Positions 1 to 56,900 of a DNA stretch of 64,000 nucleotides are shown piece after piece; within the stretch, counting starts at the first letter, position 1; the number at the start of each line of letters is the position of its first letter. The translations under genes and the position numbers were made by a program. Origin of the DNA: Strigamia acuminata. Lineage: Eukaryota. Location of the stretch: contig OX442314.1 in NCBI GenBank assembly GCA_949358305.1, positions 1,922,001 through 1,986,000 on the forward strand, given 5' to 3'. The notes beneath the pieces were generated by a model, which did not search any database, had not been told where the DNA came from, and saw only the letters and a program-made list of their open reading frames with translations.

Positions 1-760
1 AGTCTTTCCTTGAGTGGTCGCCAATTTGATTCAATGGTCGGTGTGTTTGTCCAAGTGTCTGGATCCACAAAATTGCGTAAATGGTTAACGGTCAGGTGTG
101 AAAAGCCCTCCTCATCCAGATTGTTGTAACCTTTCCAACAATCTGTCATAATCGTTGTGGTTCAACATGCTTGTCAATCAAGGCAAGGAAGGTTTGTGCA
201 TGTCTCTTGTTGTTTCTACTCAAAATTTCTACTCGAAATTTCCCATTGGCTCCTGTCTCTATCATTCCCAGGATCCAACTGCCCTCTACAACCCTCCCTC
301 TTTCATATTTTCGACAACCTATTTTGGACTCATCGATTTCAACCACATGTCCAGGTCACCCAATTCTTCTCTCAGACTCAAACTTTGAGTCAAGGGCAAC
401 CATGCACATTTCGCGACAGTATGAATACCAGTCTGCCACTGTAGCAGATTACAACACACTGTCGCGAATCGAGCACTCCCTGATTGTCATTTCATATGAC
501 ATTTTCGTGGCAAATGTTTATGTCAGCAGGATGCAAACATCAGGTGTTTTTTGTTAATGACAACTGGAGTGGATTTCCCATTCGTTCCTGATGCAATCTT
601 CTACACCTAAAAGCCCCCAACCCATGCTTGTTTGGATCTAATGTCATTGATCAACGACTCTTTGGACAATTTCTAATCCTGGGGATCAAATTTCGCTCCC
701 AGAGCCACTCAAGACAAGTCTCCCTACTTCAAAATGCGTGGAAATGCGCAAATAAGTTTA
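1..760 (-). mobile_element. Degenerate Merlin/IS1595-like DDE transposase remnant, truncated by the window start
   Basis: Minus-strand frames read TVADWYSYCREMC..., GHVVEIDESKIGCRKYERGRVVEGSWILGMIE, IMTDCWKGYNNL...HLTVNHLRNFVDP...TIESNWRPLK. These are the VEIDES / TD / IES DDE motifs of Merlin/ISXO2 transposases, broken by stops and frameshifts. The right boundary is approximate. Confidence 0.85.
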
Positions 761-1782: not shown

Positions 1783-3236
1783 AAAACGAAGACAGAGTCA
1801 TGAGTAGATCGTACACACACCACGTCAATTGCTACTTCAAAAACCAGTTTCGATGCGTTCTATGTGTTCAAAGTGAGGAGAAACACCGTTTCCACTGGAC
1901 GGACGCCAATCACGAAGGAGCTGAATTCGATCTGGAACGTTTCCCCAACAGACGGTGAATTCCGTATTTTGATTGGAATTACAATTTTTCATTGCAATTT
2001 CACTTTTTTCCATTGAAAATTCACTTTTTTCCAATGAAATTTCAATTTTTCTATTAAAATTTAAATTTTTTTATTGAAATTTTACTTTTTTTGTTGAAAT
2101 TTTCCTTTTTTCCATAGAAATTTCAATTTTTCATTGAAATTTCAATTTTTCATTAAAATTTCAATTTTTTCCAATGAAATTTCAATTTTTTCATCGAAAT
2201 TTCACTTTTTTCATTGAAATTTTAAATTTTTTATTGAAATTTTTTTTTTTTCCATTGAAAATTCATTTTTTCCATTGAAAATTTACTTTTTTCCATTGAA
2301 AATTTACTTTTTTCCATTAACTTTCAATTTTCCCATTGAACTTTCAATTATTCCATTGAACTTTCAATTTTTCCATTTAACTTTCAATTTTTCCATTGAG
2401 CTTTCAATTTTTCCATTGAACTTTCACTCTTTTAAAAATTTTCTATCTAAATAACCATCATCATCGAACGAATGTTCCATTAACCGTTTCCTGTGTGGTT
2501 ACAAAAGCCCTCGAATGGTATTTGAGGGCGGCTCTTATTTCAAACCGCTTCTCTGATGAATGCAGAACCGCTAGTCAAGAAAAGGAAAGGGACCGTGAGG
2601 AAAAAGAAGTTGATGACGCATGCCGCAAACAACCAACGAACTCTTCTACAAAGAAAAGTGGTACATCGAAATGGAAGACAGAATCAAACGTAATTTAAAA
2701 TTATAAATCATGTCATGTGATTACGTGTGATTCTATTCTAGAAGCGCAGCGCCAGAGGATAATCGGCGAAAGACAACGACGAACTAGTGGAGTCCCGAGC
2801 GGAGTGCAAGCAGCAAGTGCACTGCAGCATGTCTTGTAGAAGCAACTCATCCTCTAATTAAAGGATGAGTTGCTTCTACAAGACATGCTGCAGTGCTCGC
2901 AGTCTTGCATCGCCTCCTTGGCGCTCTCGGAACTGCACCTCCAGCCGATGCAGTTCCTTATTTGTCGTTCGAGAATCGAGAACACCTGGCAATAATTGAA
3001 ATATGATTGATTAACTTTTGTGATTCATCAATTATTTATTATTTGCGTTTGATTAATTCATCTGTTGGAGAAACGCTCCAGATCGCATTCAACTCCTTCA
3101 TGATCGGCGTGAGGTGAAAACGATGTTTTTCCATTACTTTCAACAAATCGGCATTGTATGCATATCGAGACTGGTTTTGCACGAAGCAATGGACGTGGTG
3201 TCTGTACAATCTACTTGTGTCTCTGTCTTCGTTTTC
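1783..3236. pseudogene. Tail-to-tail inverted pair of decayed gene fragments of unknown family, meeting at a perfect 35-bp-arm palindrome (2819-2896)
   Basis: 1783-1952 (+) and about 3060-3236 (-) align: aaaacgaagacagag...caccacgtc.attgct...aaaaccagt...acgcc.atca.gaaggag.tgaat.cgatctgga.cgtttc.ccaacaga. Splice-like boundaries and in-frame stops are present. Confidence 0.55.
1985..2430. repeat. Degenerate AT-rich tandem repeat (about 20-22 bp unit, ttttccattgaaatttcaa)
   Basis: Visible periodic T/A tracts; related to the array in the dynein intron at 25870-26410. Confidence 0.8.
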
Positions 3237-3875
3237 AACAGTGTTTCTAGTCTTCTACCATACACGTGGATGCGAATGCGGATACGTGACGTGTATCACG
3301 TAAATATGACGTGACACAATGAAAATAGGAAAAAACAAATTGTAATTCATGTAATATTTAATTTAAAAAAATTAAATTCAACAGAAAATACATTTATTCG
3401 CTCAATTTTGAAAAAAATGTTCGAAAATCAAATTATTTCCATGCAATTAAAACAAATTTACACTTTTTTCAAACATTTCTCAAAGTAAAATTGTGTCTAA
3501 CAAAAAATCTCACTCCAGATGTAAAATGTAAAATAAACAGAAGAAATTGAGAATAAAAAAATAAAATTGCTGGAAAAAATTTAGTTTATCATGGAAGCGC
3601 CATTTTGTATAAAATTAAATCCCAAAATCGCAAGGATTCTGATTCTGAATAAATTTCTGTGGTATAATTTTGAATTTTAATTGTTTATTGCAAAATTTGG
3701 CACAGTGTGCAATTTTTAACTTAATCTAAATAAAATTGTAAAATTAATAATTTAAATAGAATCCATTTTGGATGATGAGGTGCATATCATAAAGACATAC
3801 AAGGGGGTGGCTGTTCTGGCAAAAATATTAGTGTTTTTTGCCAAGAAATGAGTGTGTTTGGTTGGGCATAACTTG

Positions 3876-4056
3876 TGTCATGTATTGTGCCGATGACGTT
3901 ATTGTTATGCGCCCCCTGGCGAATGAAAATAATATGTTATGTAACTGAGTGCAATTGCACTCACTCATGTTTACGACTCAGCTGAGTAAGGTTAATAAAA
4001 CGTGAGTTCATTTGTGCACCATCGATGTTGGTTTCATTCAATACGAATACAGTTCA
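3876..4056 (+). repeat. 5' LTR of the Gypsy element
   Basis: Direct repeat of 8263-8443; contains AATAAA and the 18-bp palindrome TGAGTGCAATTGCACTCA. Confidence 0.97.
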
Positions 4057-4057
4057 C

Positions 4058-4075
4058 TGGCGACGAGATGGGATT
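4058..4075 (+). promoter_or_regulatory. Primer binding site complementary to the tRNA-Ser(GCT) 3' end
   Basis: TGGCGACGAG-ATGGGATT lies 1 nt after the LTR. It matches the remembered complement of eukaryotic tRNA-Ser(GCT) (TGGCGACGAGGATGGGATT) with one G missing. Confidence 0.75.
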
Positions 4076-4199
4076 AATTGTGATGTGTTTGTGCGTGTGA
4101 GGACGATTTGTGAGCGAGTTTAACCGGGGCGAAGTTTTTGAGTGAATAATACATCGCGACCTTCTCAAGGACGTGTGCGGTGATTCATACGAGTGCGCC

Positions 4200-7100
4200 A
4201 TGTCGGTTATCGGCAAAATTGGTGAGTTTGACGAAGCAAAAGAGGAATTTTATCTGTATATTGAGCGTGTAAAACATTTTTTCACTGCGAACGCGATTAA
4301 AAGCGACGTGCAAACTTCCACGTTGATGGCGGTAATGGGCCCCGCCACGTACAAACTTTTAAGAAACTTAATGCAGCCAACGGAACCCAAGGACTGGACA
4401 ATGGATGACATTATAAAAAAATTATCTGATCACTACAGGCCTGCCCCAATAATTATTGCTGAACGTTTCAGATTTTTGAAGAGAGACCAGCGCGTCGGTG
4501 AATCGGTGGCGGCGTACATTGTGGAGTTGAGGCGTTTGGCTTCGACGTGCAACTACGGTACCTTTTTGGACGAGGCCATTCGCGATAAATTTGTGTGTGG
4601 TTTGGCGTCAGAGGCGACACAAAAACGATTACTGGCGAAAAAGGATTTGAAATTGGCGGACGCTTTGGACACAGCGGCTGCCATGGAGATGGTCGACCAC
4701 GACACAACAGAGTTGAAGGTGCCAGTGGCGACCGTGAGTAAGGTGGAAGGAGGGCGCCCTTTTAGGCAAAAATTCGAAAGAAACAAGGAAAAAAGAACAT
4801 GTTTTCGTTGTGGTTTTAATCATTCAGCGGATAAATGCAAATATATCGGCGCAACTTGTCATTCTTGTGGAAAGATGGGCCATATTTCTCCGGTTTGCAG
4901 GTCGAGACCGAGCAAGGACGTCAGCATGGACAAGCAGACGTTTCGTGGCGAACCAAAGTTCACAAAGAAGGTGGCTGCGCAGGAACCGGAGGAGGATGAC
5001 AAATATGCGGTTTTCGAGATGTATCCGGTTCATTCGATTGGAAAGTTGGGTAATTGTAAAAAATACGTTGTTCCTGTGTGCATTGCGGACGCGCCCATCG
5101 AGATGGAGCTGGATACGGCGGCGGACGTGACGGTTGTCGGCGGAAAGTGGTTCAGAGAGAATTTTCCTAATGTTGTTTTGGATCCGTGCCGTATAACTTT
5201 GCTCTCATACAGCGGTGACACGGTGGAAATTGATGGCCAAACTGAGGTGGTGGTTACACACGAAGGAGGGAAGTATACCTTGCCTTTGGTCGTGGTGAAA
5301 GGTGACCGCCCGGGCCTTTTTGGCCGAAATTGGATTAAGGAGGTAAAATTGGATTGGAAAAATATTTTTACAGTGATGAACGTGGAAGTCCCGGATAAAG
5401 AAACCACAACTATAGAGGATTTATTAAGGAAGTACGCATCTCTGTTTGAACCAAATAAGGAGCCGATTAGGAATTTTAAGGCGACCATCAAATTGAAGAA
5501 AGATGCAAAACCGGTTTTTTGTAAACATCGCCCGGTCCCCTATGCTTTGAAGGCAGCTGTGGAGGCCCAGATTCAGCGGCATTTGGACGCGGGAATTTGG
5601 GAACGTGTGGAGCATTCGAAGTGGGCGACACCATTGGTTAATGTCGTGAAACCGAACGGATCAGTGCGATGTTGCGGCGACTTCAAGATAACGGTAAACC
5701 CACAATTAGACATTGATCAATATCCTTTACCTACCCAACAGGACATATTTGCGACGTTGTGCGGTGGCGAGGAATTTTCGACCGTAGACTGTTCGGATGC
5801 GTATGAACAGATCGAATTGAGCAAGCAGGCCCAGGAAATTCTAACTTTGAACACGCACATGGGTTTGATGCGCCCTAAGCGTTTGGTATACGGGTTTGCG
5901 GGAGCGTCCGGCATTTTTCAGCGGGCGATCGATTTGATCATTCAGGGAGTGAAGCGCGTGGTGGCGTTTCAGGACGACACGATGACCACCGCGCCATCGA
6001 GACCCGAACATTTGATGGGTTTGGAAAATCTTTTCGAGCGTTTTAAGAGAAATAACGTGTGCCTCAATCGAAAGAAATGTAAATTTTTGCAGAAGAGGAT
6101 CAAATACCTGGGGCACATTATAGACAAAGAAGGCATTCATCCCACGACAGAAAAAATTGATGCAATTAGCAAGGTGCCATCACCTAAGAACGTGTCGGAG
6201 TTGCGTTCTTTTCTCGGATTGTTGAACTACTATTGTAAGTTTTTGAGGGGGTTATCAACTAAATTGGCCCCTTTGTACAGTTTGTTGCAAGATAAGGTCG
6301 AATGGGATTGGTCGGAGACGTGCGAGCAGACTTTCCAGCAATGCAAGAACGCACTGACGTCCGAGGCGGTGCTGGTGCATTACGACGTGGGTAAGCCGCT
6401 TCGTTTAACGTGCGACGCGTCGCCTGTGGGCGTTGGTGCTATTCTGTCGCACATCATGCCGAATGGCGAAGAGCGCCCCGTAGGATATTCATCCCAGACT
6501 CTAACTCAGGCTCAACGGGGTTATCCACAAGGGGAAAGGGAAGCTTTGGCAATTGTGTGCGCGGTCCAGAAATTTTATCAGTATTTGGTGGGTAGGGAGT
6601 TCACCTTGGTTACGGATCATTTGCCGTTGGTCGCAATTTTCGGCGATAAACGGGGTATCCCGACTTTGGCGGCCGAGCGCATTCGTCGGTGGGCATTATT
6701 GTTGTCGACTTTTCGATACAAAATCGAGTACAAGAAGGGAAGCGAGAACATAAACGCAGACGTTTTATCCCGCATGCCTGTGACGGATGGTGTTGTCGGC
6801 ATCGAATCGCACGTATTTAAGTTGTCGTTCATCGACGACATACCCATTGTGGCGAAAAACATCAGCGCCGCAACTAGAACCGATAGGATTTTGGGGTGCG
6901 TGATTCGTTATATCGAGAGCGGATGGCCCGGAAGCGTTAAGGATCCGGAGCTCTTGCCGTTTTCGCGTCGGCGTGACGAATTGTCCATTGACAGCGGATG
7001 CATAATTTGGGGAATGCGTGTAGTTATTCCAGTTAAATATCGACCCCATATGTTGGACCTTTTGCACGACACCCATTCCGGTATGGTAAAGATGAAGTCG

Positions 7101-8210
7101 ATAGCGCGCGCTTTTGTTTGGTGGCCGGGTTTGGATGCGGAAATTGAGGACATCGCAAGGAGATGCCATGCTTGTCAACAGTGTCAGGCCGACCCTCCGG
7201 AGGCGCCATTCAAATCATGGTCATGGCCATCCGGTCCCTACGAGAGAGTGCACATTGATTTCGCGGAGTTGCGAAAGGTGCATTATTTGATCATGTACGA
7301 CAGTTACTCCAAGTGGATTGACGCCATACCGATGACAACAACCACGTCCGAGCGGACCATAGAGGTTCTGCGTTGGAGGTTCGCGGATTTTGGGGTGCCG
7401 GCTGAAATAGTGTCGGACAACGGACCCCAATTTTCTTCTGCCGAATTTGCGACGTTTTTAAGCCTGAATGGAATCAAGCAGACGTTGGTGCCAGCGTACT
7501 ATCCGGCCACCAACGGAGCTGCGGAGAGAGCGGTCCGCACTTTCAAGGATTCGCTTGAGCGAATGCTGACCGACGATAGGGACAGCACGACGACGAGTCA
7601 TAAGATTGCGAGATTTTTATCTCGTTACCGTAACACGCCGCATTCAGTCACTGGTAAGACCCCCGCTGAACTTTTCATTCGCAGGACTGTGCGTACCCGT
7701 TTGTCTTTGGTGAGACCGGACGTTAGGCGCCACGTTCACGAGCAGTTGGACAAGATTCACACCACGCAGACGGGACGCCAGGCGCGAGTTTTTGAGGTTG
7801 GACAGTCGGTGTGGGTAAAGAGGCACCACATTCGTGGCACCGAATGGACACGTGGAACCGTGCAATCGATTCAAAGTTCAAGGACTTATGTAGTGGTTTG
7901 CGGCACAACATCTAGAACGTTTCACGTGGATCACGGGACGCATCATAACACCCCGGCTTACGGGGGGGAGACATTTCAACACGATGACGGTGCGGACGAG
8001 GAAGACGTCGTTGTGCAGAACGCGCAGCCGATGCCGGAGGTACAGGGCACAGAAGCCGAGGTGAACCCCGCACCAGAACCGCACGAGGTTCAGCGGGCGG
8101 TGCCCCATCAGGAGGATAATGCCCCAGACCGGGAGAACAACGCGGAGCCGAGGCGTGCGGACTTGCACCCAAGAGAGACATTACAGAAACCGAAAAGACT
8201 AAATTTGTAA
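4200..8210 (+). CDS. Gag-Pol polyprotein (gag with two CCHC knuckles, protease, RT, RNase H, integrase)
   Basis: CFRCGFNHSADKC and CHSCGKMGHISPVC; ELDTAAD protease; RT FQDD; RNase H CDASPVG...EREALA...TDH; integrase H-x3-H...C-x2-C and VHIDF / SDNGPQF / NGAAER. First in-frame ATG is at 4200. Confidence 0.95.
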   Translation: MSVIGKIGEFDEAKEEFYLYIERVKHFFTANAIKSDVQTSTLMAVMGPATYKLLRNLMQPTEPKDWTMDDIIKKLSDHYRPAPIIIAERFRFLKRDQRVGESVAAYIVELRRLASTCNYGTFLDEAIRDKFVCGLASEATQKRLLAKKDLKLADALDTAAAMEMVDHDTTELKVPVATVSKVEGGRPFRQKFERNKEKRTCFRCGFNHSADKCKYIGATCHSCGKMGHISPVCRSRPSKDVSMDKQTFRGEPKFTKKVAAQEPEEDDKYAVFEMYPVHSIGKLGNCKKYVVPVCIADAPIEMELDTAADVTVVGGKWFRENFPNVVLDPCRITLLSYSGDTVEIDGQTEVVVTHEGGKYTLPLVVVKGDRPGLFGRNWIKEVKLDWKNIFTVMNVEVPDKETTTIEDLLRKYASLFEPNKEPIRNFKATIKLKKDAKPVFCKHRPVPYALKAAVEAQIQRHLDAGIWERVEHSKWATPLVNVVKPNGSVRCCGDFKITVNPQLDIDQYPLPTQQDIFATLCGGEEFSTVDCSDAYEQIELSKQAQEILTLNTHMGLMRPKRLVYGFAGASGIFQRAIDLIIQGVKRVVAFQDDTMTTAPSRPEHLMGLENLFERFKRNNVCLNRKKCKFLQKRIKYLGHIIDKEGIHPTTEKIDAISKVPSPKNVSELRSFLGLLNYYCKFLRGLSTKLAPLYSLLQDKVEWDWSETCEQTFQQCKNALTSEAVLVHYDVGKPLRLTCDASPVGVGAILSHIMPNGEERPVGYSSQTLTQAQRGYPQGEREALAIVCAVQKFYQYLVGREFTLVTDHLPLVAIFGDKRGIPTLAAERIRRWALLLSTFRYKIEYKKGSENINADVLSRMPVTDGVVGIESHVFKLSFIDDIPIVAKNISAATRTDRILGCVIRYIESGWPGSVKDPELLPFSRRRDELSIDSGCIIWGMRVVIPVKYRPHMLDLLHDTHSGMVKMKSIARAFVWWPGLDAEIEDIARRCHACQQCQADPPEAPFKSWSWPSGPYERVHIDFAELRKVHYLIMYDSYSKWIDAIPMTTTTSERTIEVLRWRFADFGVPAEIVSDNGPQFSSAEFATFLSLNGIKQTLVPAYYPATNGAAERAVRTFKDSLERMLTDDRDSTTTSHKIARFLSRYRNTPHSVTGKTPAELFIRRTVRTRLSLVRPDVRRHVHEQLDKIHTTQTGRQARVFEVGQSVWVKRHHIRGTEWTRGTVQSIQSSRTYVVVCGTTSRTFHVDHGTHHNTPAYGGETFQHDDGADEEDVVVQNAQPMPEVQGTEAEVNPAPEPHEVQRAVPHQEDNAPDRENNAEPRRADLHPRETLQKPKRLNL

Positions 8211-8262
8211 ACCTATTGTGATATTTTTATTCTTTTAATTGGCTTTTTAAAAGGGGGGATAT

Positions 8263-8443
8263 TGTCATGTATTGTGCCGATGACGTTATTGTTATGCGCC
8301 CCCTGGCGAATGAAAATAATATGTTATGTAACTGAGTGCAATTGCACTCACTCATGTTTACGACTCAGCTGAGTAAGGTTAATAAAACGTGAGTTCATTT
8401 GTGCACCATCGATGTTGGTTTCATTCAATACGAATACAGTTCA
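8263..8443 (+). repeat. 3' LTR of the Gypsy element
   Basis: Follows the PPT, is identical to the 5' LTR, and is followed by the ACTTG TSD. Confidence 0.97.
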
Positions 8444-8715
8444 ACTTGAATGTTTTTAATAAATGAAAATATTTTTTTGGCTTAGATAAAAACTGAATTT
8501 TGTGTTCAAAAAACTGAATTTTTGGTCCAAAAACTGAATTTTTGGTCCAAAAACTGAATTTTTGGTCCAAAAACTGAACTTTGCATAACTTTGCAAAATA
8601 TTAAATCGCAAGGATTATGAAAAAACGGCTGAAGAACAAAATTTAAAACTACAAAAACGCCGGCAACACTGCGCACCGATTAAATTTTAATTCTTTATTG
8701 GTTTATATTAATTAA

Positions 8716-9558
8716 TTAAAAGATGTTTAAGAAATCTGCTTTGATGAAACTAAACACGATACACACAAGAATAACGAAAACAAATCTAGTCGGGCTACCG
8801 AGAATTTCCCGGTGGCCTGTGGCCCGTCCTTGACCCTGTGGCCAGAACCATCCAGATTTCTCGGTACTTAATTTGTCCCCAGTCCAGCTCTGGTTGGCTA
8901 TAAATCCGTGGAGTTGGCTGAGGGCTTCGGTCCATCCCTCCTTTGTGAACGTGGGCCAAATGTGGTGTGCTTCGATCGGACTGAGCACGACAGACATGCG
9001 CTCGTTGTCGTTGCTACAACGCAGCCCCGTCAAGATGAGACTGAGACGCCAGAAAGCGGCGTTATGTGAAATGGTCTTCAACCAATCGTCGTAAAGGTTG
9101 AGAACGACCATTTTCGCTTCGCTGGCTCCGTTGATCAAATCATCAAACTGACTTACTTCAAACAACGCTTGGAAATATAATTGCACTTCGTACGCCTTCA
9201 CCTCGATGACGATGTCGGGCAAATCGCGCAAATGCTTTCGCAACGGCTCGAACGCTCCTTTGCGGGAAACGACAATCCGTTCGGGTCGTTCCTTCGCCGG
9301 CAAAGAACGGATGAGTGCGGACACTTGTTTCGCCGTTTCCCATTTCGCTAGTTCGGGTGAACGTTGTTTATAAGCCGCCCAGTCGGACGCGTGAACAATT
9401 TTCAAGAATAATTGTCCGGTGATCGAGTTGAAAATGTAAATGGCGCCGTTGATCGGGATAGTCGTTAAATTTCCTTCTGCAGTTCGGTGCGTTTTGACCC
9501 TATAAGCACAAGTGTCGTCGACAAACCAACTAATTTCGTGTGTCAATGAGAAATCCAT
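8716..9558 (-). CDS. Stand-alone Prp8 RNase H-like (domain IV) protein with C-terminal hydrophobic tail, copy 1 (280 aa, intronless)
   Basis: WFVDDT...EGNLTT.PINGAI.IFN..TGQLFLKI.H.S.WA...LAKW.TA..V.ALIRSLP...NLYDDWLKTIS...HHIWPT is colinear with the Prp8 RNase H-like domain. It has its own ATG and stop, TATTTAAAAG upstream (9614-9623 on -) and AATAAA just after the stop. Confidence 0.9.
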   Translation of the reverse strand: MDFSLTHEISWFVDDTCAYRVKTHRTAEGNLTTIPINGAIYIFNSITGQLFLKIVHASDWAAYKQRSPELAKWETAKQVSALIRSLPAKERPERIVVSRKGAFEPLRKHLRDLPDIVIEVKAYEVQLYFQALFEVSQFDDLINGASEAKMVVLNLYDDWLKTISHNAAFWRLSLILTGLRCSNDNERMSVVLSPIEAHHIWPTFTKEGWTEALSQLHGFIANQSWTGDKLSTEKSGWFWPQGQGRATGHREILGSPTRFVFVILVCIVFSFIKADFLNIF

Positions 9559-10472
9559 AGTTGGGTGTCAGTCGAAGCGTCGGGCTCTTAATAACCACAG
9601 ATTGCTCTTGTGTCTTTTAAATAGTCATAAATGACACGCAGAGGACTCGTATATCAAAACGTTGCACACACGTCCATTCATTCGATTATCTCGCAAAACA
9701 GTCGGCAGATTAAACGTTTGAATTGAACGGAAAAATCACCGGAAATAAGAATTTTAGAAATATTGTGTACTGGAATTTGTAGTACACCTCGCAGTACCTG
9801 AGATTACGCGAGATCTTAAAGCTGCTGTTTTTGGACGAGATGAGACGTCAAATCAAATACAGTTCGCGCATGTTATCTTGATGCTAAATTCCTATTGCGC
9901 ATCCCATTCTGCGTAGACGATTTTCTAATTCCAGTTGTTATTTAGCAGCATTAAACCTAATAATTACGCCTAAAAAATAAACAACAATATTTTGGTCGTA
10001 CAGGTGTAAATTACTTTTAATAATGAGTTTGTAGCTGTTTATTTACTTTATTGATGAAAAATGCAGATATCTCGAGAACGAACGCTCGGATCGTCAAAAA
10101 CTAAACACCAAACAAAAGAGCGGAAAAAGAAGCCAGTGAGTCAGAAATAGTTAAAATAATTTATAATGTTCTATAATTCTATAATTGTATAATTATTTTT
10201 TCTTAAGGTCCAGTTTTACTCCGTCAAATTGAGTAAAGCTTTCAAAAACGCACACGGATCCCAGGCCAGAAGGAACCGTCCATTGAGAAGGATATACGGC
10301 CATATTCCGACAGTAGAATGGGAGGTGTTTCGTCGTGCCACCGTAATAAAGCAACATTCTTTAATATTCTGTTCATTTCTGAAACATTTCTTTTCCACAT
10401 TTGTTCAGTTCTATTTCTGAGACCATCCCAGCACTGAGGCATTACGTAGACAGCTTGAAGAGTAGCTGAAGT

Positions 10473-10588
10473 TTGAAATTCAATTCATTAATGTTGCATC
10501 GGAATACGAGCGGCCGTCGTATCGGATCGACGAAGGCCGTAGATACCTGCAATGCGTCGAATTTCATTTACAGTAGAACGCCGATTAT
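10473..10588 (-). pseudogene. Displaced partial copy (5' hairpin, H box and intronic flank) of the dynein-intron H/ACA snoRNA at 29719-29872
   Basis: Near-identical to about 29788-29902, including the flank aatttcatttacagtagaac.ccgatta; the 3' hairpin and ACA box are missing. Confidence 0.8.
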
Positions 10589-10639
10589 TTATGGCAGGGC
10601 GCGTCGAGGCAGCAAACGTTGCAGAACACGTCTGAGGTT

Positions 10640-12150
10640 TTTACACCAGATATGTACGAGGAAGCCGTCAGTTGTCCGGACCGTGAAAAGTGGCTTGACG
10701 CCATGGAAAGTGAAATTGATTCGCTTCACGTTGTGGTGATTCGGCATCACCTGAAGAAGTAATTAGCGACGATTATTATGTTACTAATACTCGCCACTAG
10801 GTCGCGCTAGAAATACCGACTAGACTAACTAGTCTCGTGTTTCTGCGAACCTGCATAATCAAAAGGATTTGCATATGACGTCATTTCCGGTTAATATATA
10901 ACACCGATGCTTGACCGGAAACGACACTACAGTTACCACTTTCAGCAAGAGCACCATTTACCTCACCTTTCAGGCCGTTTCACGGATTGATCGAGGACCG
11001 GTGCCCGCTGACCACTTCAACTGTACAACAGCCACATTTATTTAGCGTAGCCAATCTACGCTAGAATAAATATCCAAACGATATTCGTTTAATTCGCACG
11101 AGAAAGCGAATTCTCGCGTGTTCATTATAACACGTGGAAAACTACCCTAGACAACAACCAGACCACGCGTAGGACTAAACAATTGGATCCGCCATTGTTT
11201 AGCGGCACATCGTATTCGCAGACGAATCCGAGGACCACCGTAGGAATCATCTACATTCATATTGTATTAGTAAGCGTGTTTAATAAAGCAGTATTATAAC
11301 TAGTATTGTATTCCCGAGTATTATTATTTATTATCTTTAACCACAAAGTCGAATCACGACAACGTGAATCAAGTTTGGCGATTGGTCAAGCAACGGCTGG
11401 AAATGAGGACGATCCGCAGCAAGTGGATCTTTAGAATCAAGCTGAATGCAGATAGATCCATCAACAAATACAAGGCTCGTTTGGTGGTGGTTGGCTATGC
11501 CCAACGCCCAGGCATTGATTTTACCGAGAAGTTTTCACCAGTTGTCCGCACAGAGTCTTTACGGATCATTTTGTTTCTGGTTGCGACATTGGGTTTGAAG
11601 ACCAGGCAGTTTGATGTCAAAACTGCTTATTTATATGGAGATTTGGAGGTGGAGATATTTATGGAACAGCCAGAAGGTTTTTCCGAGGACGAACAAGAAG
11701 TTTGCAAGCTAGAACGTAGTCTCTACGGATTGCGCCAGTCTGGACGCTGTTGGAACAGACGCCTGAACGACGAGCTTATAAAATTGGGTTTGGAACCGTT
11801 GACTGACGACGCGTGTGGCTACACTTATGTAGAAAAAGATGGCATACTCATCCTTGAAGTGAAAAAATTTTGGATTGGCTACTGGTGGGTTTGAAGAAAG
11901 TCTTCGAGATCGTGGAGTTGGGCGAGGTCCATTACCTGCTAGGAATGGAGATTCGGGTCCCAGGGGAAGGCATATGGATTGGGCAACAGAAATTTATTGA
12001 CGAAATTTTGGACACCTTCGATTCACAAGATCGTTCAAAGGCCTGCACACCAGTGGTGGTGGGGCAAGATCTCGATATTTTTTAGGATTCCAAGAGCGTC
12101 GATCAATGAGCGTATCAACGGATTTTGGGCTCCGTGATGCATTTAATGAT
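10640..12150 (+). mobile_element. Ty1/Copia reverse transcriptase remnant, decayed and interrupted by a solo LTR
   Basis: TPDMYEEAVSCPDREKWLDAMESEIDSLH / VNQVWRLV...KWIFRIK...YKARLVVVGYAQRPGIDF...QFDVKTAYLYG...SLYGLRQSGRCW. The YVDD region is missing and frameshifts follow. Confidence 0.9.
10732..11361 (+). mobile_element. Solo LTR (630 bp) with 4-bp TSD ACGT
   Basis: TGTGGTGATTCG...CGAATCACGACA termini form an 11/12 inverted match. ACGT at 10728-10731 and 11362-11365. Removing the insert restores the Copia frame S-L-H-V-N-Q-V-W. The strand is inferred from internal TATA and AATAAA motifs. Confidence 0.85.
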
Positions 12151-12517
12151 CGTTACGACCCCGAGTTCAGCCGTCGAACGAGCTGTGAACCATACTACGA
12201 ATTCTCACCAAAAAAAGCGATGACCAATCGTTAAGAAGGTTGTGGGCCAACGAAAACAATAAAACAGCAAGCGCCTGAAAGTGAAAATCATCCCGCTATA
12301 CTGGAAGAATTAATGCTGAATTTAACAATTCCGATGTCATCATAAATGTTTACGAAAGTGGTCAATATACGATTGACCACTTTTTGTTTACAGTTGGTGT
12401 TATTTTGACTATTCATGGACTTCAGTGTTTAAAGATATTGTATGTAAACTATTTTAAATGTATAGAATTCAATAGTTAAGGAATTATTTTTATTTTTAAA
12501 GAAGTGTCTTTAGATTT

Positions 12518-12725
12518 AAGGGAGAGAAGATGTAAGATTTGCATTTATTCATTTTTACATTTTTATATAATATATTATTTGTTTGTCATAGAATCGTAGT
12601 GTTAAATTTAAGTCGTTTGAAGTGTGTTTATTTTTAGTTTAATATAGTATGTTACGTGTGTCATTATTATGTGTCATTGTATTGTTCTTTTGTTAAATAG
12701 TTTACCTTCTAAATCTAAACCAACA
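12518..12725 (+). mobile_element. Possible PPT plus 3' LTR relic
   Basis: The purine tract AAGGGAGAGAAGA is followed directly by TGTAAG... and ends ...AACCAACA; no partner LTR was seen. Confidence 0.3.
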
Positions 12726-12784
12726 CAAACCCACCGAGAGCAGTACCGGATTATCACAACGACATACTGGTAGCTACAAGGACC

Positions 12785-13135
12785 TTGGATGAACATTTTT
12801 CAACTCGGCCCCGCGATCGGGCCGGTGCATTTGCTAGGAGGTTTTTACAAAAAGTAAACAAGCAATGTAAGGCGAGTCTCGAAAGTTCGCCTGAAAGTGA
12901 ACATCAACCGGAACCAAACGGAAGGTTCCCAACACTAGTTTACAAGCCGAGATTTACTATTAATATATATGAATGTGGACCATTATTCTGTTGTGCGGTT
13001 TTGATTGTATTGGCCGTTATTGTAATTTGTTGTGTAGTGGCGGTATGGATTTTCTGGCCAAAACAGAAAAGTTCATATTTTTATAAAGGTACAAGAAGAA
13101 AAATATTGAATTTTTACCAAAACAAGAAAAAGTAG
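12785..13135 (+). other. Exon-like fragment encoding a single-pass membrane segment of unknown family (probably a pseudogene or partial gene)
   Basis: ...INIYECGPLFCCAVLIVLAVIVICCVVAVWIFWPKQK: a hydrophobic stretch followed by basic residues. There is a possible donor AAG/GTACAA at 13088/13089 and no in-frame ATG. Confidence 0.35.
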
Positions 13136-14590
13136 TAGAGCAAAGGAAATAGATTTGACCAAGATAAAACCTATCTATATCATGTGGGCTTTGTTAAATT
13201 ATGCATTTCCATAGTATTATTAAATTATCTAGATATATTGTTATTATTGCAGTTGCCAAAGACGCTAGCCTTTCTATGGCAACCCAGCACAGTCAGAAGA
13301 AATTGTAGAAAGTCAAGAGAATGAGATAAAAGGATTCCAATAAGAGACAATAAAAAGTTGGATATTAATCAAACTGAACACCAGCATGTTGTTGTTTTCC
13401 AATAGCAAAAAATTTTTCTTTTATTTGTTAATCTTTGAGGATTTTTGCAACTCTGGAGAAAGTCATTTTGAAAAAAGTGAAAACTTCTCAAAGGTTTACA
13501 AATATTTAAGTTTAACAACAGCTAGGCTGGTCAAAATGACCCAATGGGTTTCCAATAGTTTTTTGATGCTTTACATCATAAAACAGCAAACGTGGCATTT
13601 TTCTTAAAAAAGAATTAAAAAAAAAAGAGAATTCACCTAGAACGACTGAAACCGATCCGATTGGTCCGTGCACGTTCAGAAACACCTTGGGGCGTCCCCA
13701 ACAAAGATGAAAAGACAAAGAACAACCACTCCTAGCTGGCCAAAGTCCTGTACCATGGGTCATCCAGAAATAGATGACTGAAAAATTTTCTACAGTCCCA
13801 GAGAAGTCCAACTGAGAGCATTTCAACACCTGAGTACCAAAATTTTCAAGTTAAAAACATTATTCAATGCAGCAATTGCTATACTGAAACTGAAAGCCAA
13901 GTCGCCAGGTTCCATCAATTCAGTTAATACAGGTTATAAGATCAAGTGGTTTTATTTAGTTTTAATTAGTTGTATTTAGTTTCTGTTGTATTTAAAGTGT
14001 GAATTACCAAATGCAAATAATAAATGAATAATTAATTAGATCAAGTGCAGAATCAGTGTCAAGAGAAGAAAAGAGTATCAAAGTGATGAAAAGCATTGCA
14101 CCACTAGTGTCTATGCGTATGCAAGGCAATATTGACGAACTTTTCGTTTGTACATTGCAAAAACCGTCCCTTTTCCTTTTTTATAGATTAAAGCTTTAAA
14201 ACAACTTACAGTCATTCCAATGTTTGTATTCTAATAGTATGAAAACATACATAAAGGAGAGCGAGGTGTCTGTGAAGACCAACTAACAGTTGTTGCTCAT
14301 AACCTTTGGGAAGAGCAAGAATACTACTGTACAGCTTGTTTGGAGACCCATATTTGCAGAAGAAAAGAAACTCAAGGAAGACAACGTTAAACAGGAATAG
14401 TTCCATGAAAGAAGCTCATTGCCAGTTTTGGAATGAAAAATTTACATTTTTAAGAAATAAGAATTTACCAAAACAAGAAAAAGTAGTAGCGCAAAGGAAA
14501 TAGATTTGACCAAGATAAAACCTATTTATATAATGTGGGCTTTGTTAAATTATGCATTTCCATAGTATTATTAAATTATCTAGATATATT
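13113..14590. repeat. 127-bp direct repeat (13113-13239 and 14464-14590)
   Basis: The copies align without gaps and with 3 mismatches by eye. Confidence 0.9.
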
Positions 14591-16318
14591 TGATGGATTT
14601 TACACTGAAAACATTGACATTCTTAAATTAGTAGTGGCGTTTGCTATTGTCATGTTAATCTTTGCTATAGTCATTTTTTTTGGATTGAAATAAAATAATA
14701 ATAAAAATTATTATTTTAAACCGAAATAAAATAATAATAAAAATTATTATTTTAGACCGAAGCGCAGTTCCTTGAAGAACGCCGCCAAAATAAAATAAAA
14801 AGAAAATATCAATAGATCCTTGACCAAAATCAAGATAAAAATGGATGAGACGCAAATTCAATCAGATAGTAAAGTGGAAAGACAAAAATCCACGTTTTGG
14901 GTCAATGGTAAATGCTACATTCATAGATTGCAATGCACTCCCACAATACCAAACGATTTGCCAAAATAACATGGCAAATTCACATAGAATAAAACAAATG
15001 GTTTGGAAATAAATAAATGTCTATTTCATCAGACTGGACCAAACATCAAATGGAAAATTAGAAGAAAATAAATAAACTGAAGGAAGGAAAGAATGAAATC
15101 ATCCTGTTTGGCTGGATGACCAGAGCTCTCGTTTAGTCCACTGGCAGGATCGCCCAGTGGTCCAGGGGCTACCACGAGGAGGTAGAGAGTTGGATTTTTA
15201 GCCCCCGCACAAAAACAAATACAATTTTGGCAAAAATAAAATCAAATCGCCAAATGATTTATCACCGACTTTCCAGAAATAAATAGAATGCTAAACCTAA
15301 CGCAGTTCCTTCACATTTTTTAGACACGAACAAATCAGAAATATTAACAAAAATCAAACCATTGACTCACCAATCCGACCTTAATCCGTTTCCTTGATCA
15401 TGAATGAGCAAAATTCTTCATGAATCCCATCAAAAAAGGAATGAAACGTGTGAAAAATATAAAGAGAAAATGCAGGATCTGAGAGAGAAATGTAATGCAG
15501 AACACAAACACGCGATCGTTGCTATGCCGACGGAAAAGCATCGCAAGTTGTTGCCACCAGAGCGGCGCTGCAACTCAGTGTGAGGAAAGTTTGAATGTGG
15601 AGATTGGGAAAAAAGTCGAAAACGATGATACGGTTGTAAGAAATGAATTGAACATAATTGATTCTGATTTTGATTTCTGCGATAAATAATACATTAATTC
15701 CTGAATTTCGTTCAAATCAAATTTCCAATCGTTACAAATTAAATTTGTAATTAAGTTAATAAAAAAAAAAATTCAAAAAAATTCAAAAAAACTGAATGTT
15801 CGGTCTAAAAAAACTGAATTTTCGGTTTAAAAAAAACTGAATTTTCGGTCTAAAAAAACAAGATTTTTAGAAGTGCAAAGCGAGGGTAAAATCCAAAAAA
15901 TTTGCTGCCGATTTTTCTGGGCAAAAAAGAAATTTCTTTACGGTTGCTTTTCTGTCTAAAAAGTTGATACTCAATATGCTGTTAACTTTCTTGATAAATT
16001 ATGCATTCTAAGAAACTATTAATGCAAAATTAAGAACTTTTAATTGAGCTCAAATTATACAATCAAAGCAGCAAAACAAAATGTATAATTTGATCGACTA
16101 CACTTTATAACTTATAAATGAAATAAATTAAATAAATTAATGTAAATGTTTATCACATTTTGAGTGACAAAAAAATATTCATTCTACATACTGGTTATGT
16201 CAAGTTAGAAAAAAATCAATAGAATTTGATGAAATGGTTAAAACAAAAGAAATTTTTTTTTTCAATTCTCATCGAAACAATCAACTATCAGTATTGATTG
16301 GTATTCATCTCCTTCATA

Positions 16319-17425
16319 TTAATCTTCATCTTGATGGACCAATCTAGTTTGCAACAACTGCTTACGCCGGGTTTTCTTTTGACTGGACCACGTATCCACC
16401 CTGCACTCGACTATTGAGTCTAAAACTTGCGACCGTGTTTGACTCGTGATCTTCGTACGACAAACCGGACATTCACTCTTTTCTCTGACGCAGTACGAGC
16501 AGATCGAATGCGAACAATTCAACACAACAGCCTGAAACATTGAATGAAATATGAAAATGAAATATTAAAAAATCAAAATCAAAATCACCATCATTAAAAG
16601 TTCCGAACACAGGCAGCACCGGAGTTCGATGTCTAGGTAATCGCTCTGACGTTTGTGAATCTCCAATTCCCGGCTCACATTCTTCAGACGCTGCGCAGTA
16701 CGATCCACTTGGCCCTTCATGTCGTCCATCGATTTTTGTAATTGGATATTATCAATCTTTACGCGTTTCCTTCGCTGAATCGGTTTTTGTTCCAGCAACG
16801 CTCGAACTCTCTCTCTCTCGTTCGCCTGACAATTGATCCTCTCTTGTTTCATTAATTCATTCCGGAAGTGCTCGACTTCCTTTTCCAATCTCTCGTTTTC
16901 TTTCTTCAACTTGTCACCGCCAGAGAAACCTGTGGTTTCGGTGAAAGTGAAAAATAATTCTTCGTCCGGTGTTTTCTCGCCAAAACAAACCGAGTAGCCA
17001 TCTTGCAATGGCGTCTGCTCGCGCGCTACTAATTTTACGCCATTAACATAAACTCCGTTTTCACTCTGTGAATTATTAAAAAATGAACTCATTAAATATG
17101 TATAATTTTCATCCTAAATTCATTATTTCGTACATTATTATCCTTCACGTGCCACACGCCGTTCCATTTGGTGAAAACTGAATGTATGCGCGACAGTATC
17201 GGCGAATCGAGTGTATAATCGGCGTTCGGGGCCCAACCAACGGTGATCTGCGGAAACAACTCAATTAAATAATTCTTTTAAAATAAAACTAATTATTAAG
17301 AAATTAGTTTATACCACATCTTCATCTAAGCTAATTATTCTGTCCACTGCATATTCGCGACTATCTGCCCGCCATGGGAATAATTTCGTGTACGAAATTA
17401 GACACGACGACTTCACCGTGGCCAT
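16319..17425 (-). CDS. FHA-coiled coil-RING E3 ligase, divergent RNF8/CHFR-like (about 304 aa; exons 17425-17315, 17247-17134, 17065-16589, 16531-16319)
   Basis: GT-AG introns all in phase 0. FHA motifs ITVGW..., LSRIH, WHVKDNNSENGVYVNG, GYSVCFG; an EK-rich coil; C3HC4 RING CCLC...CSH..C..C...CPVC. Confidence 0.85.
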
Positions 17426-17899
17426 GAGTAAACTTATTGAGCGACAGCTGACGAGTGTTCGTATTACTTAGGTTTTAGGTACCTTGATGACTTAGGCGCC
17501 TTTTCCACCGGAAAAGGATGCAGATAGAGCTAACTAATCGAGTGAAGGATAATGCCAATCAGAACCGAGAAAACATGCGAGAGACTACAGTAGTTCTGAG
17601 TGGACAGCCATAGAATTTCTCAAAAAATGTCCGTGATTAAATGATCTCTGGAGGGGTTGGCGACGACAAATATTTATCAAAGTAAAATTGTTTCCAACAA
17701 AAAATCTCACTACAGATATCATCAAATGTAAAATAAACAGAAGAATGAGAGATAAATAAATAAAATTGCTGGAAATTTTTTTAAAAGGAAATGAAGTTAA
17801 TTAGTTTATCCTGGAAGCGCCATTTTGTATAAAATTAAATCCCAAAATCGCAAGCATTCTGAATAAATAGATTTTAATTCTTTATTGGTTTATATTCAA

Positions 17900-18742
17900 T
17901 TAAAAGATGTTTAAGAAATCTACTTTGAGGAAAATACACACGATAGACACAAGAATTACGGAAACAAATCTAGCCGATCTAGTTGGTGGCAGTGCTGGAG
18001 CTGGACTGACCCGTAGCCTGTCCCCGTGGCTCGACCCATCCAATTTGTCCCCAGTCCAGCCCTGGTTGGTGGTCTTGTTGACTATCAATCCGTGGAGTTG
18101 GCTGAGGGCTTCGGTCCATCCCTCCGCTGTGAACGTGGGCCAAATGTGGTGTGCTTCGATCGGACTGAGCACGGCAGACATGCGCTCGTTGTCGTTGCCA
18201 AAATGCAGCCCAGTCAAGAGGAGACTGAGACGCCAGAAAGCGGCGTTATGTGAAATGGTCTTCAACCAATCGTCGTAAAGGTTGAGAACGACCATTTTCG
18301 CTTCGCTGGCATTGTTGATCAAATCGTCAAACTGACGTAATTCAAACAACGCTTGGAAATATAATTGCACTTCGTACGCCTTCACCTCGATGAGGATGTC
18401 GGGCAAATCGCGCAAATGCTTTCGCAACGGCTCGAACGCTCCTTTGCGGGTAACGACAATCCGTTCGGGTCGTTCCTTCGCCGGCAAAGAACGGATGAGT
18501 GCGGACACTTGTTTCGCCGTTTCCCATTTCGCTAGTTCGGGCGAACGTTGTTTATAAGCCGCCCAGTCGGACGCGTGAACAATTTTCAAGAATAATTGTC
18601 CGGTGATCGAATTGAAAATGTAAAAGGCGCCGTTGATCGGGATAGTTGTTAAATTTCCTTCTGCAGTTCGGTGCGTTTTGACCCTGTAAGCACAAGTGTC
18701 GTCAACAAACCAACTAATTTCGTGTGTCAATGAGAAATCCAT
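17900..18742 (-). CDS. Stand-alone Prp8 RNase H-like (domain IV) protein with C-terminal hydrophobic tail, copy 2 (280 aa, intronless)
   Basis: Close paralogue of 8716-9558, with the same Prp8 motifs, the same upstream TATTTAAAAG (18816-18825 on -) and AATAAA after the stop. Confidence 0.9.
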   Translation of the reverse strand: MDFSLTHEISWFVDDTCAYRVKTHRTAEGNLTTIPINGAFYIFNSITGQLFLKIVHASDWAAYKQRSPELAKWETAKQVSALIRSLPAKERPERIVVTRKGAFEPLRKHLRDLPDILIEVKAYEVQLYFQALFELRQFDDLINNASEAKMVVLNLYDDWLKTISHNAAFWRLSLLLTGLHFGNDNERMSAVLSPIEAHHIWPTFTAEGWTEALSQLHGLIVNKTTNQGWTGDKLDGSSHGDRLRVSPAPALPPTRSARFVSVILVSIVCIFLKVDFLNIF

Positions 18743-19110
18743 AGCAACACAAGTGAGTGATGTTGTGTGTCAGTCGAAGCGTCGGGCTCTTAATAACCAC
18801 AGATTGCTCTTGTGTCTTTTAAATACTAAAAAATATCGAAACGTTGCACACACGTCCATTCATTCAATTATCTCGCAAAACGAGACATTCCGATAACCAG
18901 TTTGTGCCATTTATTTTCCAGTTTATTAATTGATGATGATTATTATTATAACTGCGAAATAAAACTTTAATTTTTTTCAAATTTAGTTCTATTTTAGATT
19001 TGTTTTTCCCGCGGTAGTTTCGCCGCCATGTTTTGGCTCGGACAATAGCTCCGCCTGGTGGCGATAATCGCCAGTTGAATACATCTTTTGTGGTTGCGAT
19101 GACATTGATC

Positions 19111-22057: not shown

Positions 22058-42025
<19,968 letters not shown>

Positions 42026-53950: not shown

Positions 53951-56900
53951 ATGGCTCCGAAACCCGACCCGTGGGTCCGATTGTTCGATGTGCGCGACCC
54001 CGCGCGACACAAAAAGGGCTACACGGTCTACAAAGTCATATCGACGGTGCGCAATAATTAAACTTGGAACGATCGCAATTTAATTAATTAATTTGTGTTT
54101 AGGTGTATCCGCGATCGGCACCGGAAGCCGTAACGCAAGTAAAATAAATAAATAATTTTTAAAAAAAAAACTGGTTTTACAAAATGGATTTTTCTGCTAG
54201 ATTGTTGTTTGGAAACGCTACAACGACTTCAAAAACCTGCACAAAAGCCTGCAAATCCTGCACACCAAGCTGTATTTGAAAGGGGTCTTCCCTCCGTTCG
54301 CCAAAGCTCGTTTGTTCGGTGAAAAAGAAATAAAGAAATATCGAGGAATGGAATGATTAATTAATTGTATTGCAGGAAGATTCGACGCGAGCGTGATCGA
54401 AGAACGACGTCAGAGCGCGTATGCTCTGTTGGAGTTTGTCGCTCAGCACCCGCCGCTTTTCACGAGTCAATTATTCGTTAAATTTTTCGAAGTAATTTAA
54501 ATATAAGGTTGCACTGGATAGCAATAATGCAGAATTAACCGAACACGAGAAAAAAGCAATTTTTGCGTTGATAAAAACTGTTTTTGCGTTGAAAAAAGCT
54601 ATTTTTGCGTTGAAAAAAGCTATTTTTGCGTTGAAAAAAGCTATTTTTGCGTTGAAAAAAGCTATTTTTGCGTTGAAAAAAGCTATTTTTGCGTTGAAAA
54701 AAGCTATTTTTGCGTTGAAAAAAGCTATTTTTGCGTTGAAAAAAGCTATTTTTGCGTTGAAAAAAGCTATTTTTGCGTTGAAAAAAGCTATTTTTGCGTT
54801 GAAAAAAGCTATTTTTGCGTTGAAAAAAGCTATTTTTGCGTTGAAAAAAGCTATTTTTGCGTTGAAAAAAGCTATTTTTGCGTTGAAAAAAGCAATTTTC
54901 GGGTTGAAAATGCAATTTCCACGTCAAAAAAGGCTATTTTGGGACTGAAAAATGCAATTTCCACGTCATAAAAGGCTTTTTTGGGGCTGGAAAATGCAAT
55001 TTTCACGTCAAAAATGCAATTTTCGTGCCAAAAATGCAATTTTCGTACCAAAAATGCAATTTTCCACTCCAAATAATAAAAAATTTGCATAAAATATTCA
55101 ATCATCACTTAAAAATACAAAGTTATTAACCGATAAAATTCATTTTATGTAGTCTAACTTGTAAGTCATCAGTATTCATCTTAAAAAATGCGAAACTTAG
55201 ATGCAAATGATGTTCGGTGAAACCCTAATACAAACCAAATCATTTTTACCACAAATTCCAATGTGAATTAATTTTGTTTTCTTCTCACAGAGCGGTCAGA
55301 AAATCACCCCATCCAAACTGATCCGCGACCCCGCCGAGAGCCCGGACGTGTTCGATGTGCTCGTGGTCGCACCGCCGCTCGAATCGCTCGTGGAAAGACC
55401 GGCGGAAGCGAACTCGCGCCTGGGCGGAATTTGGCAATACCCGCGCGAATCGGTCAGCTCGAGTTCGGACAGCAGCACGGACGAGCGCACGACGACCGAC
55501 GGCGACGGCGACTCCGTCCGGAGCGCCGCGTCCACCGTCGAACTGTTTGATCCGTGTCGCGGCGTGGACGCCGACCGCTTCGTCGACAACAACGTGTGGT
55601 TGCTCGCCACGATGGCCAACTGCGGCAAAACGGACGAGGAAAGACTCGAGCTGGATCCGTCGCTGTCGGTGAACCTGAACACGAAGGCGGAGCTCGATCC
55701 GTCGCCGCCGTCGGTTCCGCCGCCGCAGTCGCCGGCGCCGTCGATGGACGAGTCGGATTACATCGTTTCGGCGGCCGACGCCATCAGCAAGGCGCAGCTG
55801 AACGAGGCGGATGGCAACTACGAAATTTCGTTCATGTTTTACAAGCGCAGCGTGCAGATACTTCTAGAGGGCGTTCGCGGGGATTCGGACGGGGCGCGCA
55901 GAGATGCGGTGCGAAAGAAGACGGCGCAGTACTTGAGCAGGGCCGAGGAAATCTACAGGAAATATTTGGTTTGCAACGGAGACCTTCACGACGTTGGTTG
56001 AAACGAAATGAGTGTTGATAAAATGCGAACCTTTAGTTCACGTTCGCGAACGACGTTTGTTAGTTCAAGAAGGCGTTCACCATAAAAATAAAAATTGAGC
56101 GAAGGAATTGGAGATTTTTATAAAAATTGAATTTACAAAAATTGACCAAAAGTTGAGAAATTTAAAAAAATTGACCAAAATTTTGAGAAATTTACGAACA
56201 TTTTGAGAAATTTTGAGGAATTTCTAAAAATTGATTAAAATTTCGAGATTTTTACAAAAAATGATTTCAATTTCGTGTTTTTTACAAAAAACGATTGAAA
56301 TTTCGTGATTTTTACAAAAATTTATCAAAATTCATCAAAATTTACAAAATTGATCAAAAGTTGAGAAATTTACAAACATTATGAGAAATTTTGAGGAATT
56401 TACAAAAATTGATTAAAATTTCGAAATTTTTACAAAAAATGATTGAAATTTCGTGATTTTTACAAAAATTTATCAAAATTCATCAAAATTTACAACAATT
56501 GACCAAAATTTGGAGAAATTTACAAACATTATGAGAAATTTTGAGGAATTTACAATAATTGATTAAAATTTCGAAATTTTTACAAAAATTACGGTAATCA
56601 AAATTTTGAGATTTTTACAAAAATTGATTGAAATTTCGAAATTTTTACAAAAGTTGATCAAAATTTTGAGAATTTTTACTCAAGCACACTAACTTTACTT
56701 TATTTTACTAACATTTCGCAAAAAAAAATTGTTACAAAAATTTTTCAGAATTTCCCAAAAAAATGCAAAAACAATTACTAAAAATTTTAGATAAATGAAC
56801 GCAAACTTTTAATCCAACTTCATGAACTTAAACTAATTCATTTCTGTAAAATTTCAAGTCAACATTAGCGTGAACACGTTCAGACGGCCGTGAACGTGAA

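Follow-up and report, generated by a model that had tools for sequence, protein, structure and literature searches.

Prp8, the catalytic scaffold of the spliceosome, is among the most constrained of eukaryotic proteins and is regarded as indivisible. A 64,000-nucleotide (nt) stretch of Strigamia acuminata DNA (assembly GCA_949358305.1, contig OX442314.1, positions 1,922,001 to 1,986,000; the window below) raises the question of whether one piece of that scaffold, its RNase H-like (RH) domain, can live on as a gene of its own. The window holds two open reading frames (ORFs), copies A and B, in which this domain is followed by a linker and a hydrophobic tail. The answer reached here is that A and B are probably a partial retrogene under selection, a known kind of gene, from an unexpected parent. 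On what the proteins do, our foremost reading is a tentative one: they would be two intact genes of a retroposed family, joining the RH domain to a new tail and predicted from sequence to form a membrane-tethered, non-catalytic RNA-binding module.

The two reading frames and their domain

The original prediction had placed two intact, intronless ORFs of 280 amino acids (aa) in the window. Both proved real, and we can add that they lie on the minus strand; the plus strand carries many stops at both intervals, and the minus strand is open. The features of the two copies, with model confidence given as the predicted local distance difference test (pLDDT), are as follows.

8716..9558, minus strand: copy A ORF, 280 aa, intronless, ATG to TAA (translation; PF12134, E 5e-68)
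17900..18742, minus strand: copy B ORF, 280 aa, intronless, ATG to TAA (translation; PF12134 match)
8899..9543, minus strand: Prp8 RH domain of copy A, residues 6-220, equivalent to human 1773-1987 (PF12134; AlphaFold2 model)
18083..18727, minus strand: Prp8 RH domain of copy B (PF12134, E 4.2e-68)
8785..8898, minus strand: linker of copy A, residues 221-258, 57% GC, modelled at low pLDDT and matching in part repeated DNA of high depth
8716..8784, minus strand: hydrophobic tail of copy A (residues 259-280) plus stop, 51% T and 28% GC (hydropathy)
17900..17968, minus strand: hydrophobic tail of copy B plus stop, in a frame identical to that of A, after a linker with compensating frameshift indels
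8694..8699, minus strand: AATAAA, 17 nt past the copy A stop
17881..17886, minus strand: AATAAA, 14 nt past the copy B stop
9615..9623, minus strand: putative TATA-like element TATTTAAAA upstream of copy A
18817..18825, minus strand: putative TATA-like element TATTTAAAA upstream of copy B

The TATA-like elements lie 65 or 83 nt upstream of the ORFs, each of which has a G at +4. Two pieces of copy A, 8720-8927 and 9596-9891, are identical in contigs from two DNA runs, from which we conclude that ORF A is not an assembly error. An Rfam scan gave 0 matches.

Colinearity with the Prp8 RH domain was borne out, every motif quoted for it being found. The PF12134 profile scored 229.6 and 229.8 bits (cut-off 25) over residues 6-220/222 (E ~5e-68; 5e-68 for A and 4e-68 for B), and the human RH domain was the top PDB match for both ORFs (E 1e-70). 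An AlphaFold2 model of A, built on an 86-row alignment that is itself weighted toward the Prp8 family, had a mean pLDDT of 83, and 185 of its 280 residues scored 90 or above; in it, residues 229-255 of the linker are disordered and a terminal helix (256-279) is of low confidence. Foldseek superposed the model on human RH crystals (3enb) at a root-mean-square deviation of 1.3-1.4 Å and a template modelling score of 0.93 on the target.

In the same way as predicted, the ORFs end before the Jab1/MPN domain. Ten C-terminal Prp8 fragments, covering about 200 residues upstream of the RH domain plus Jab1/MPN, found no further meaningful Prp8 match in the window by tblastn; the matches being confined to A and B, no Jab1/MPN domain or upstream exon lies in the 64 kb, and A and B lack the flanking reverse transcriptase, linker, endonuclease and Jab1/MPN parts that a full-length Prp8 carries in one gene. 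Compared with the RH domain of Prp8/PRPF8 (PF12134, domain IV), they share its fold and boundaries, 55-58% identity to animal Prp8, the DDT motif, beta-finger, R1865, Q1894, YDDW and W1839. They differ in standing without the other ~2100 residues, in a deleted loop (1957-1961), in the new linker and hydrophobic tail, in a branch of ~1.1 changes per site (canonical ~0.06), and in an AAR2 face of reversed charge.

Parentage, selection and copy number

Sequence from the parent and from further relatives came from DNA-type contigs of two runs of one study (X1 and X2), as loose contig ends of at most 30 nt, 12 of 20 of which were translated by hand. One of the 12 was A's own tail, one was unreadable, and two came from a single canonical prp8 contig, in which SSYTAFSRL is encoded and TFEG is immediately preceded by a polypyrimidine-TAG acceptor. 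The depth of this contig was 76 in X1 and 420 in X2, or 0.36 and 0.38 of that of the neighbouring gene, an equal ratio by which we assign it to the organism of both runs. The intron before TFEG is old, since 13 of 265 Prp8 matches begin with intron-like sequence exactly there and the tick model P0095 breaks at the same place. Copies A and B read straight through this position. Their lack of an intron that canonical prp8 has supports retroposition, on the strength of this one intron, and the sequence makes it likely that the family was retroposed from prp8. Neither a poly(A) tract nor a target-site duplication was found after the AATAAA of A or B, a loss expected in an old copy, the A/B pair being itself a DNA duplication. 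Third bases differ in 4 of 6 same-residue codons between the canonical snippet and B, a hint that the origin is old. The other ends read as in-frame diverged RH sequence (KDLIAKATET, KFIGLIAEAT, EVLDAFIEHL and SDAALSRLAS, for example), and some share derived residues with A and B; these open-frame snippets indicate at least two further diverged paralogue loci, and with them the earlier description of A and B as a family gains support.

Purifying selection has acted on the RH domain. With flatworm Prp8 (P0003; 58% identical to A over 210 columns) as a stand-in for the parent, neutral simulations (1000 runs under each of 3 models) led to 4.4-7.1 expected stops where 0 were observed (P 0.015, 0.002 and 0.001). 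Conserved sites, defined as those shared by at least 90% of 70 Prp8 rows after exclusion of 16 of the 86 (A and B themselves plus 14 rows that were short or paralogue-like), were kept at 57 of 74 positions, against 41-42 ± 3.4 under neutrality, and 57 was reached in 0 of 1000 runs in each of the 3 models. All four indel events relative to canonical Prp8 are in frame. The ratio of non-synonymous to synonymous change between A and B (omega) was 0.61 overall. In codons 1-110, with 5 synonymous and 2 non-synonymous differences, it fell to 0.12 (p 0.01), and in codons 111-220 it was 1.6, indistinguishable from neutral (p 0.31). The original prediction's claim of a domain cut at its structural edges and strongly diverged yet open in both copies stands. 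The family very probably is, or recently was, functional.

The relation of A to B is seen in their surroundings.

8681..9699, strand not assigned: duplicated block around copy A, 87% identical to 17868-18881
3470..3642, strand not assigned: 3′ flank of the A block, now detached (81% identity to 17667-17862), with ~5 kb of inserted DNA between it and A
3876..8443, plus strand: young Gypsy long terminal repeat (LTR) retrotransposon in the 3′ flank of A, with identical 181-bp LTRs and an intact 1336-aa gag-pol ORF

The recurrence of B's 3′ flank at 3470-3642 identifies A and B as a DNA-level duplication; the Gypsy insertion, its LTRs being identical, is very recent. Contig depth, which is not strictly copy number, was 103-121 for pieces specific to the A block in X1, against 209-211 for the neighbouring gene and 123 and 97 for two alleles of the B promoter; the corresponding depths in X2 were 247-302, 1043-1112 and 535+609. 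The A-specific depth is thus about half (X1) or a quarter (X2) of that of the neighbouring gene, and the B promoter has a second allele of its own (B′), distinct from A. From these ratios and the split promoter alleles, copy A appears to be hemizygous and B to be present on both haplotypes. For the collapsed core in X1 the depth was 219, consistent with three copies, namely A, B and B′; A and B alone would be expected to give 150, three copies up to 258 and two of each 301. The variants listed for the two DNA runs include no stop or frameshift. Likely retroposition, likely hemizygosity of A and the independent RH-only proteins of other eukaryotes described below are additions to what had been predicted.

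Surfaces, tail and the readings they allow

The face of the domain that carries DDT is well kept: D1781, D1782, T1783, R1787, H1791, R1865, K1866, Q1894 and YDDW are present in both copies, and the beta-finger is full length in each. We take R1865 and the beta-finger to be RNA contacts. According to PMC3985635, the Prp8 RH domain carries only the strand-1 DD of the catalytic acids; A and B restore no missing acid, position 1864 being S/T and not acidic, and with this incomplete acidic set they are not predicted to be active RNases H. The AAR2 face has changed. W1839 and V1874 form the core of AAR2 interface I, and W1839A abolishes binding (PMC9629490); in A and B, W1839 is kept and V1874K, K1840E, E1843K and L1877R have arisen, all 38 of the 38 long Prp8 rows having K at position 1840 where A and B have E. 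This weakens, at least for AAR2, the proposal that the proteins serve as a sink for splicing factors, despite the kept W1839. A free RH copy can act in trans, since the isolated domain inhibits Brr2 unwinding at micromolar levels in vitro (PMC4045393).

RH-only proteins are found elsewhere. Seventeen short, diverged matches that look RH-only were chosen by eye, and include proteins of Anaeramoeba, Symbiodinium, Escallonia and Ziziphus and an RH-ubiquitin fusion. Rows P0136/P0265, P0072/P0075/P0077, P0152, P0197 and P0215 hold the Anaeramoeba and Symbiodinium proteins and the fusion, which is metagenomic (P0152). Two from Anaeramoeba flamelloides (KAJ3431121.1 and KAJ6235765.1; 265 aa, 257 of 265 identical) lie on Mb-size contigs, and those of Symbiodinium are 278-292 aa long; some RH-only records sit on short contigs, and these could be fragments or artefacts of gene calling. 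Of 16 alignable RH-only proteins, 13 have lost W1839, compared with 7 of 38 long Prp8 rows and 7 of 25 equally diverged Prp8 proteins (Fisher p 0.001 for the latter, with non-independent rows). Loss of AAR2 docking thus seems to have recurred among released RH domains, in A and B by a different route. Plant and Symbiodinium proteins fall on separate tree branches, suggesting independent origins. Like A and B, these proteins are short and diverged and span the same domain; they differ in that W1839 is mostly lost, whereas A and B keep it, and in that no hydrophobic C-terminal tail occurs in any of those viewed. No close relative of A and B emerged, the best whole-domain identity being 56% among 148 matches and 53% among the best 150 of 913. 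Viral contigs gave 11 pattern matches, 0 of them confirmed; in metagenomes, 80 of 80 kept loci (of 276 confirmed) carried Prp8 beyond the RH domain; and the ESM Atlas gave no usable match. Literature searches, covering listings and the openings of abstracts, gave no paper on a stand-alone or membrane-tailed Prp8 RH domain.

A kept surface on a free domain could also be bait. The proteins might mimic a surface of Prp8 at which a viral or parasite factor is aimed, sequestering that factor on a membrane, with copy-number turnover as the mark of an arms race. The likely copy-number polymorphism of A, the several diverged paralogues, and a helical half that evolves faster than the core half (A vs B, Fisher p 0.011) are consistent with such a decoy, as is the targeting of U5 proteins in viral infection (PMC9785106). 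Yet positive selection did not reach significance (p 0.31), neither A nor B is fused to a sensor or signalling domain, and the passages of PMC9785106 that were consulted name no RH-binding pathogen factor and give 0 matches to 'RNase H'. We consider the decoy unlikely.

The best 19-residue Kyte-Doolittle (KD) window of the tail, residues 259-277, scores 2.53 in A and 2.52 in B, the maximum of the whole protein in each. A KD this high (at least 2.5) is reached by 3 of the 1545 stop-ended open segments in the DNA stretch and by 3 of the 119 T-rich ones. With 50-51% T, and a GC content of 28% where the core has 49%, the tail probably derives from non-coding DNA. The linker has many indels, one of its stretches being in different frames in A and B, and the tail frame is common to both; the shifted frame of A meets a stop at once. 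Part of the linker and tail region of A (8742-8939) matches repeated DNA at a depth more than 10x that of the core contig, hinting that the linker is repeat-derived. RNase H-type folds followed by a C-terminal membrane helix exist in PNLDC1/Trimmer, in a small-RNA pathway; those are active exonucleases of another family, and A and B differ in their incomplete active site and in a fold taken from Prp8. From its sequence, a membrane-anchor function for the tail is plausible, and of the anchor-like tail first proposed, the hydrophobic window (KD 2.5 in both copies) stands, while its short apolar core, its T-rich DNA and the alternative that follows count against the anchor.

That alternative is decay. 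Copies A and B may be once-functional or weakly constrained retrocopies in which a read-through tail acts as a BAG6/proteasome degron and neutralises a potentially dominant-negative fragment. Hydrophobic tails are a frequent product of read-through into non-coding sequence and become captured, either to be degraded or to be targeted to membranes (bioRxiv 10.1101/2022.07.20.500724); a tail of 50% T and 28% GC resembles these. Third-position GC content, 0.59 in A and B, is down from the 0.88 of the dynein gene in the window, the second half of the domain and the tail look neutral between the copies, and the surroundings are rich in transposable elements. As in the tails triaged by BAG6, T-rich DNA has become a hydrophobic C-terminus; unlike those, the tail of A and B sits on an old, selected domain, and its frame is maintained in both copies. 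Decay is opposed by the selection seen on the domain across deep divergence, by the constraint of recent date in codons 1-110, by the open paralogue snippets, by the compensating linker indels and by the lack of stops or frameshifts among the listed variants of both runs; we judge it improbable to about the same degree as the decoy.

Several points weigh against the membrane-tethered RNA-binding module. The tail was assessed by hydropathy only, its unbroken apolar core is 14 residues long, and the terminal helix was modelled at a pLDDT of 50-62. Tail conservation is weak evidence, given that A and B differ there by 6 non-synonymous and 1 synonymous change and that random change often keeps hydrophobicity (seven random tail changes keep KD at 2.0 or more in 64% of runs, and at 2.5 or more in 15%). 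Tails with a KD of at least 1.6 end 17 of 265 Prp8 matches, and of at least 2.4, 5 of 265, apparently as intron read-through gene calls, and a degron of BAG6 type competes with the anchor as an explanation. On the domain itself, the parental sequence is a stand-in, substitutions were only mildly conservative (P 0.03-0.045), hydrophobic retention was marginal (73 vs 67-70 ± 3), and the neutral-like codons 111-220 belong to a split chosen after inspection of the data, one that coincides with the border between core and helical subdomains. The residues kept may reflect fold stability instead of RNA binding, the retained W1839 means that A and B could still bind AAR2, and trees fail to place A and B, long branches joining unreliably (long-branch attraction).

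Neighbours of the copies and meaning of the family

Copy B has a HEAT-repeat-like gene as its head-to-head neighbour, at a distance of 357 nt; the match to HEAT is a weak one (E 0.08). An intact, multi-exon gene with FHA, coiled-coil and RING parts lies 475 nt downstream of B (16319-17425, minus strand). We take it to be RNF8/CHFR-like; its FHA Gly-Arg motif, whose Arg we presume to bind phosphothreonine, reads Gly-Trp, and the gene may therefore be a diverged paralogue. Splicing of B into this gene was rejected, the latter having its own ATG exon at ~17425, which makes a fusion unneeded. Recruitment of the ATG from parental Tyr-Gly codons with decayed prp8 upstream was also rejected as unsupported, since a frameshift-aware score did not exceed that of shuffles (p 0.2 and 0.49).

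The same neighbour enters a third explanation, that of a selfish element in which an essential gene's duplicate, truncated and mislocalised, serves as drive or toxin and the FHA-RING gene, a ubiquitin ligase, possibly as antidote. There is precedent in the truncated duplicate Sd-RanGAP (PMC12941216) and in essential-gene-derived toxins (fars-3) with ubiquitin-ligase antidotes (PMC12680543). Like Sd-RanGAP and like klmt-1, pzl-1 or hyde-1 (derived from fars-3), A and B come from an essential gene, are partial or diverged, and are probably polymorphic, with A likely hemizygous and an intact FHA-coiled-coil-RING gene close to B; they differ in parent gene, and in their case drive, toxicity and antidote are hypothetical. 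The link to the FHA-RING gene is, however, one of adjacency only, that gene lies outside the A block, and B is apparently on both haplotypes, so that we think a selfish element quite improbable. Cargo of a DNA transposon (Helitron or Pack-type), or false duplication of alleles by the assembler, is the least credible explanation and is largely rejected: the region is rich in transposable elements, flanks match high-copy repeats and A and B are near-identical, but the A/B block boundaries have no terminal inverted repeats or hairpin ends, the core is low-copy, conserved sites are retained, unlike in expected cargo, and false duplication is rejected on depth (the X1 core fits three copies) and by the separate B′ promoter allele, which is distinct from A.

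The rest of the window holds ordinary host genes and remnants of mobile DNA. A cytoplasmic dynein heavy chain gene (22356-40076, minus strand) is, in the piece compared, 76% identical to beetle, 74% to psyllid and ~72% to vertebrate proteins among the named matches. A nucleotide-sugar transporter lies at 59896-60315 (minus strand) and a gene with an MIT domain plus kinase, which we assume to be RPS6KC1-like, at 55612-58420 (plus strand). An inverted pair of coding-like segments, 77% identical and with no Pfam match (1783-1961, plus strand; 3055-3235, minus strand), is a further small duplicated gene or pseudogene. A broken transposase remnant (100-760, minus strand), presumably ISXO2/Merlin-like by eye, and a degraded Copia-type reverse transcriptase fragment (RVT_2; 11403-12100, plus strand), whose surroundings match very high-depth repeats, are also present.

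Under the membrane-tethered module, the history might have run as follows. A spliced partial prp8 cDNA would have inserted long ago, and copy B would have come to adjoin a housekeeping gene head-to-head and may borrow the promoter of that gene. The tail would stem from read-through into non-coding DNA rich in T. Tethering, together with the altered AAR2 face, would prevent the free RH domain from disturbing U5 assembly, and at a cytoplasmic membrane the face made of DDT, beta-finger and R1865 would bind either structured RNA or some protein that has this face as its target. The family would then have expanded, A arising from B by a DNA duplication that is still polymorphic. A wider view is possible, though we hold it as rather doubtful: the RH domain may be an exportable module, freed repeatedly at the same boundaries in unrelated eukaryotes (this invertebrate, Anaeramoeba, Symbiodinium and plants), shedding AAR2 docking, and here an expanding family of membrane-anchored cytoplasmic RNA-binding decoys or tethers in host defence or genetic conflict.

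If true, this would give a non-splicing function to a piece of the spliceosome's catalytic scaffold, and a selected, expanding single-domain family would show that the RH domain is useful alone. Copies A and B would be naturally occurring variants in which the RNA/metal face is uncoupled from the AAR2 face, bearing on the role of the RH pseudo-active site, and their tail would clearly exemplify a hydrophobic tail of de novo origin that is, apparently, retained. RH-only genes are already present, unnoticed, in databases, and their recurrence makes the question testable in culturable organisms.

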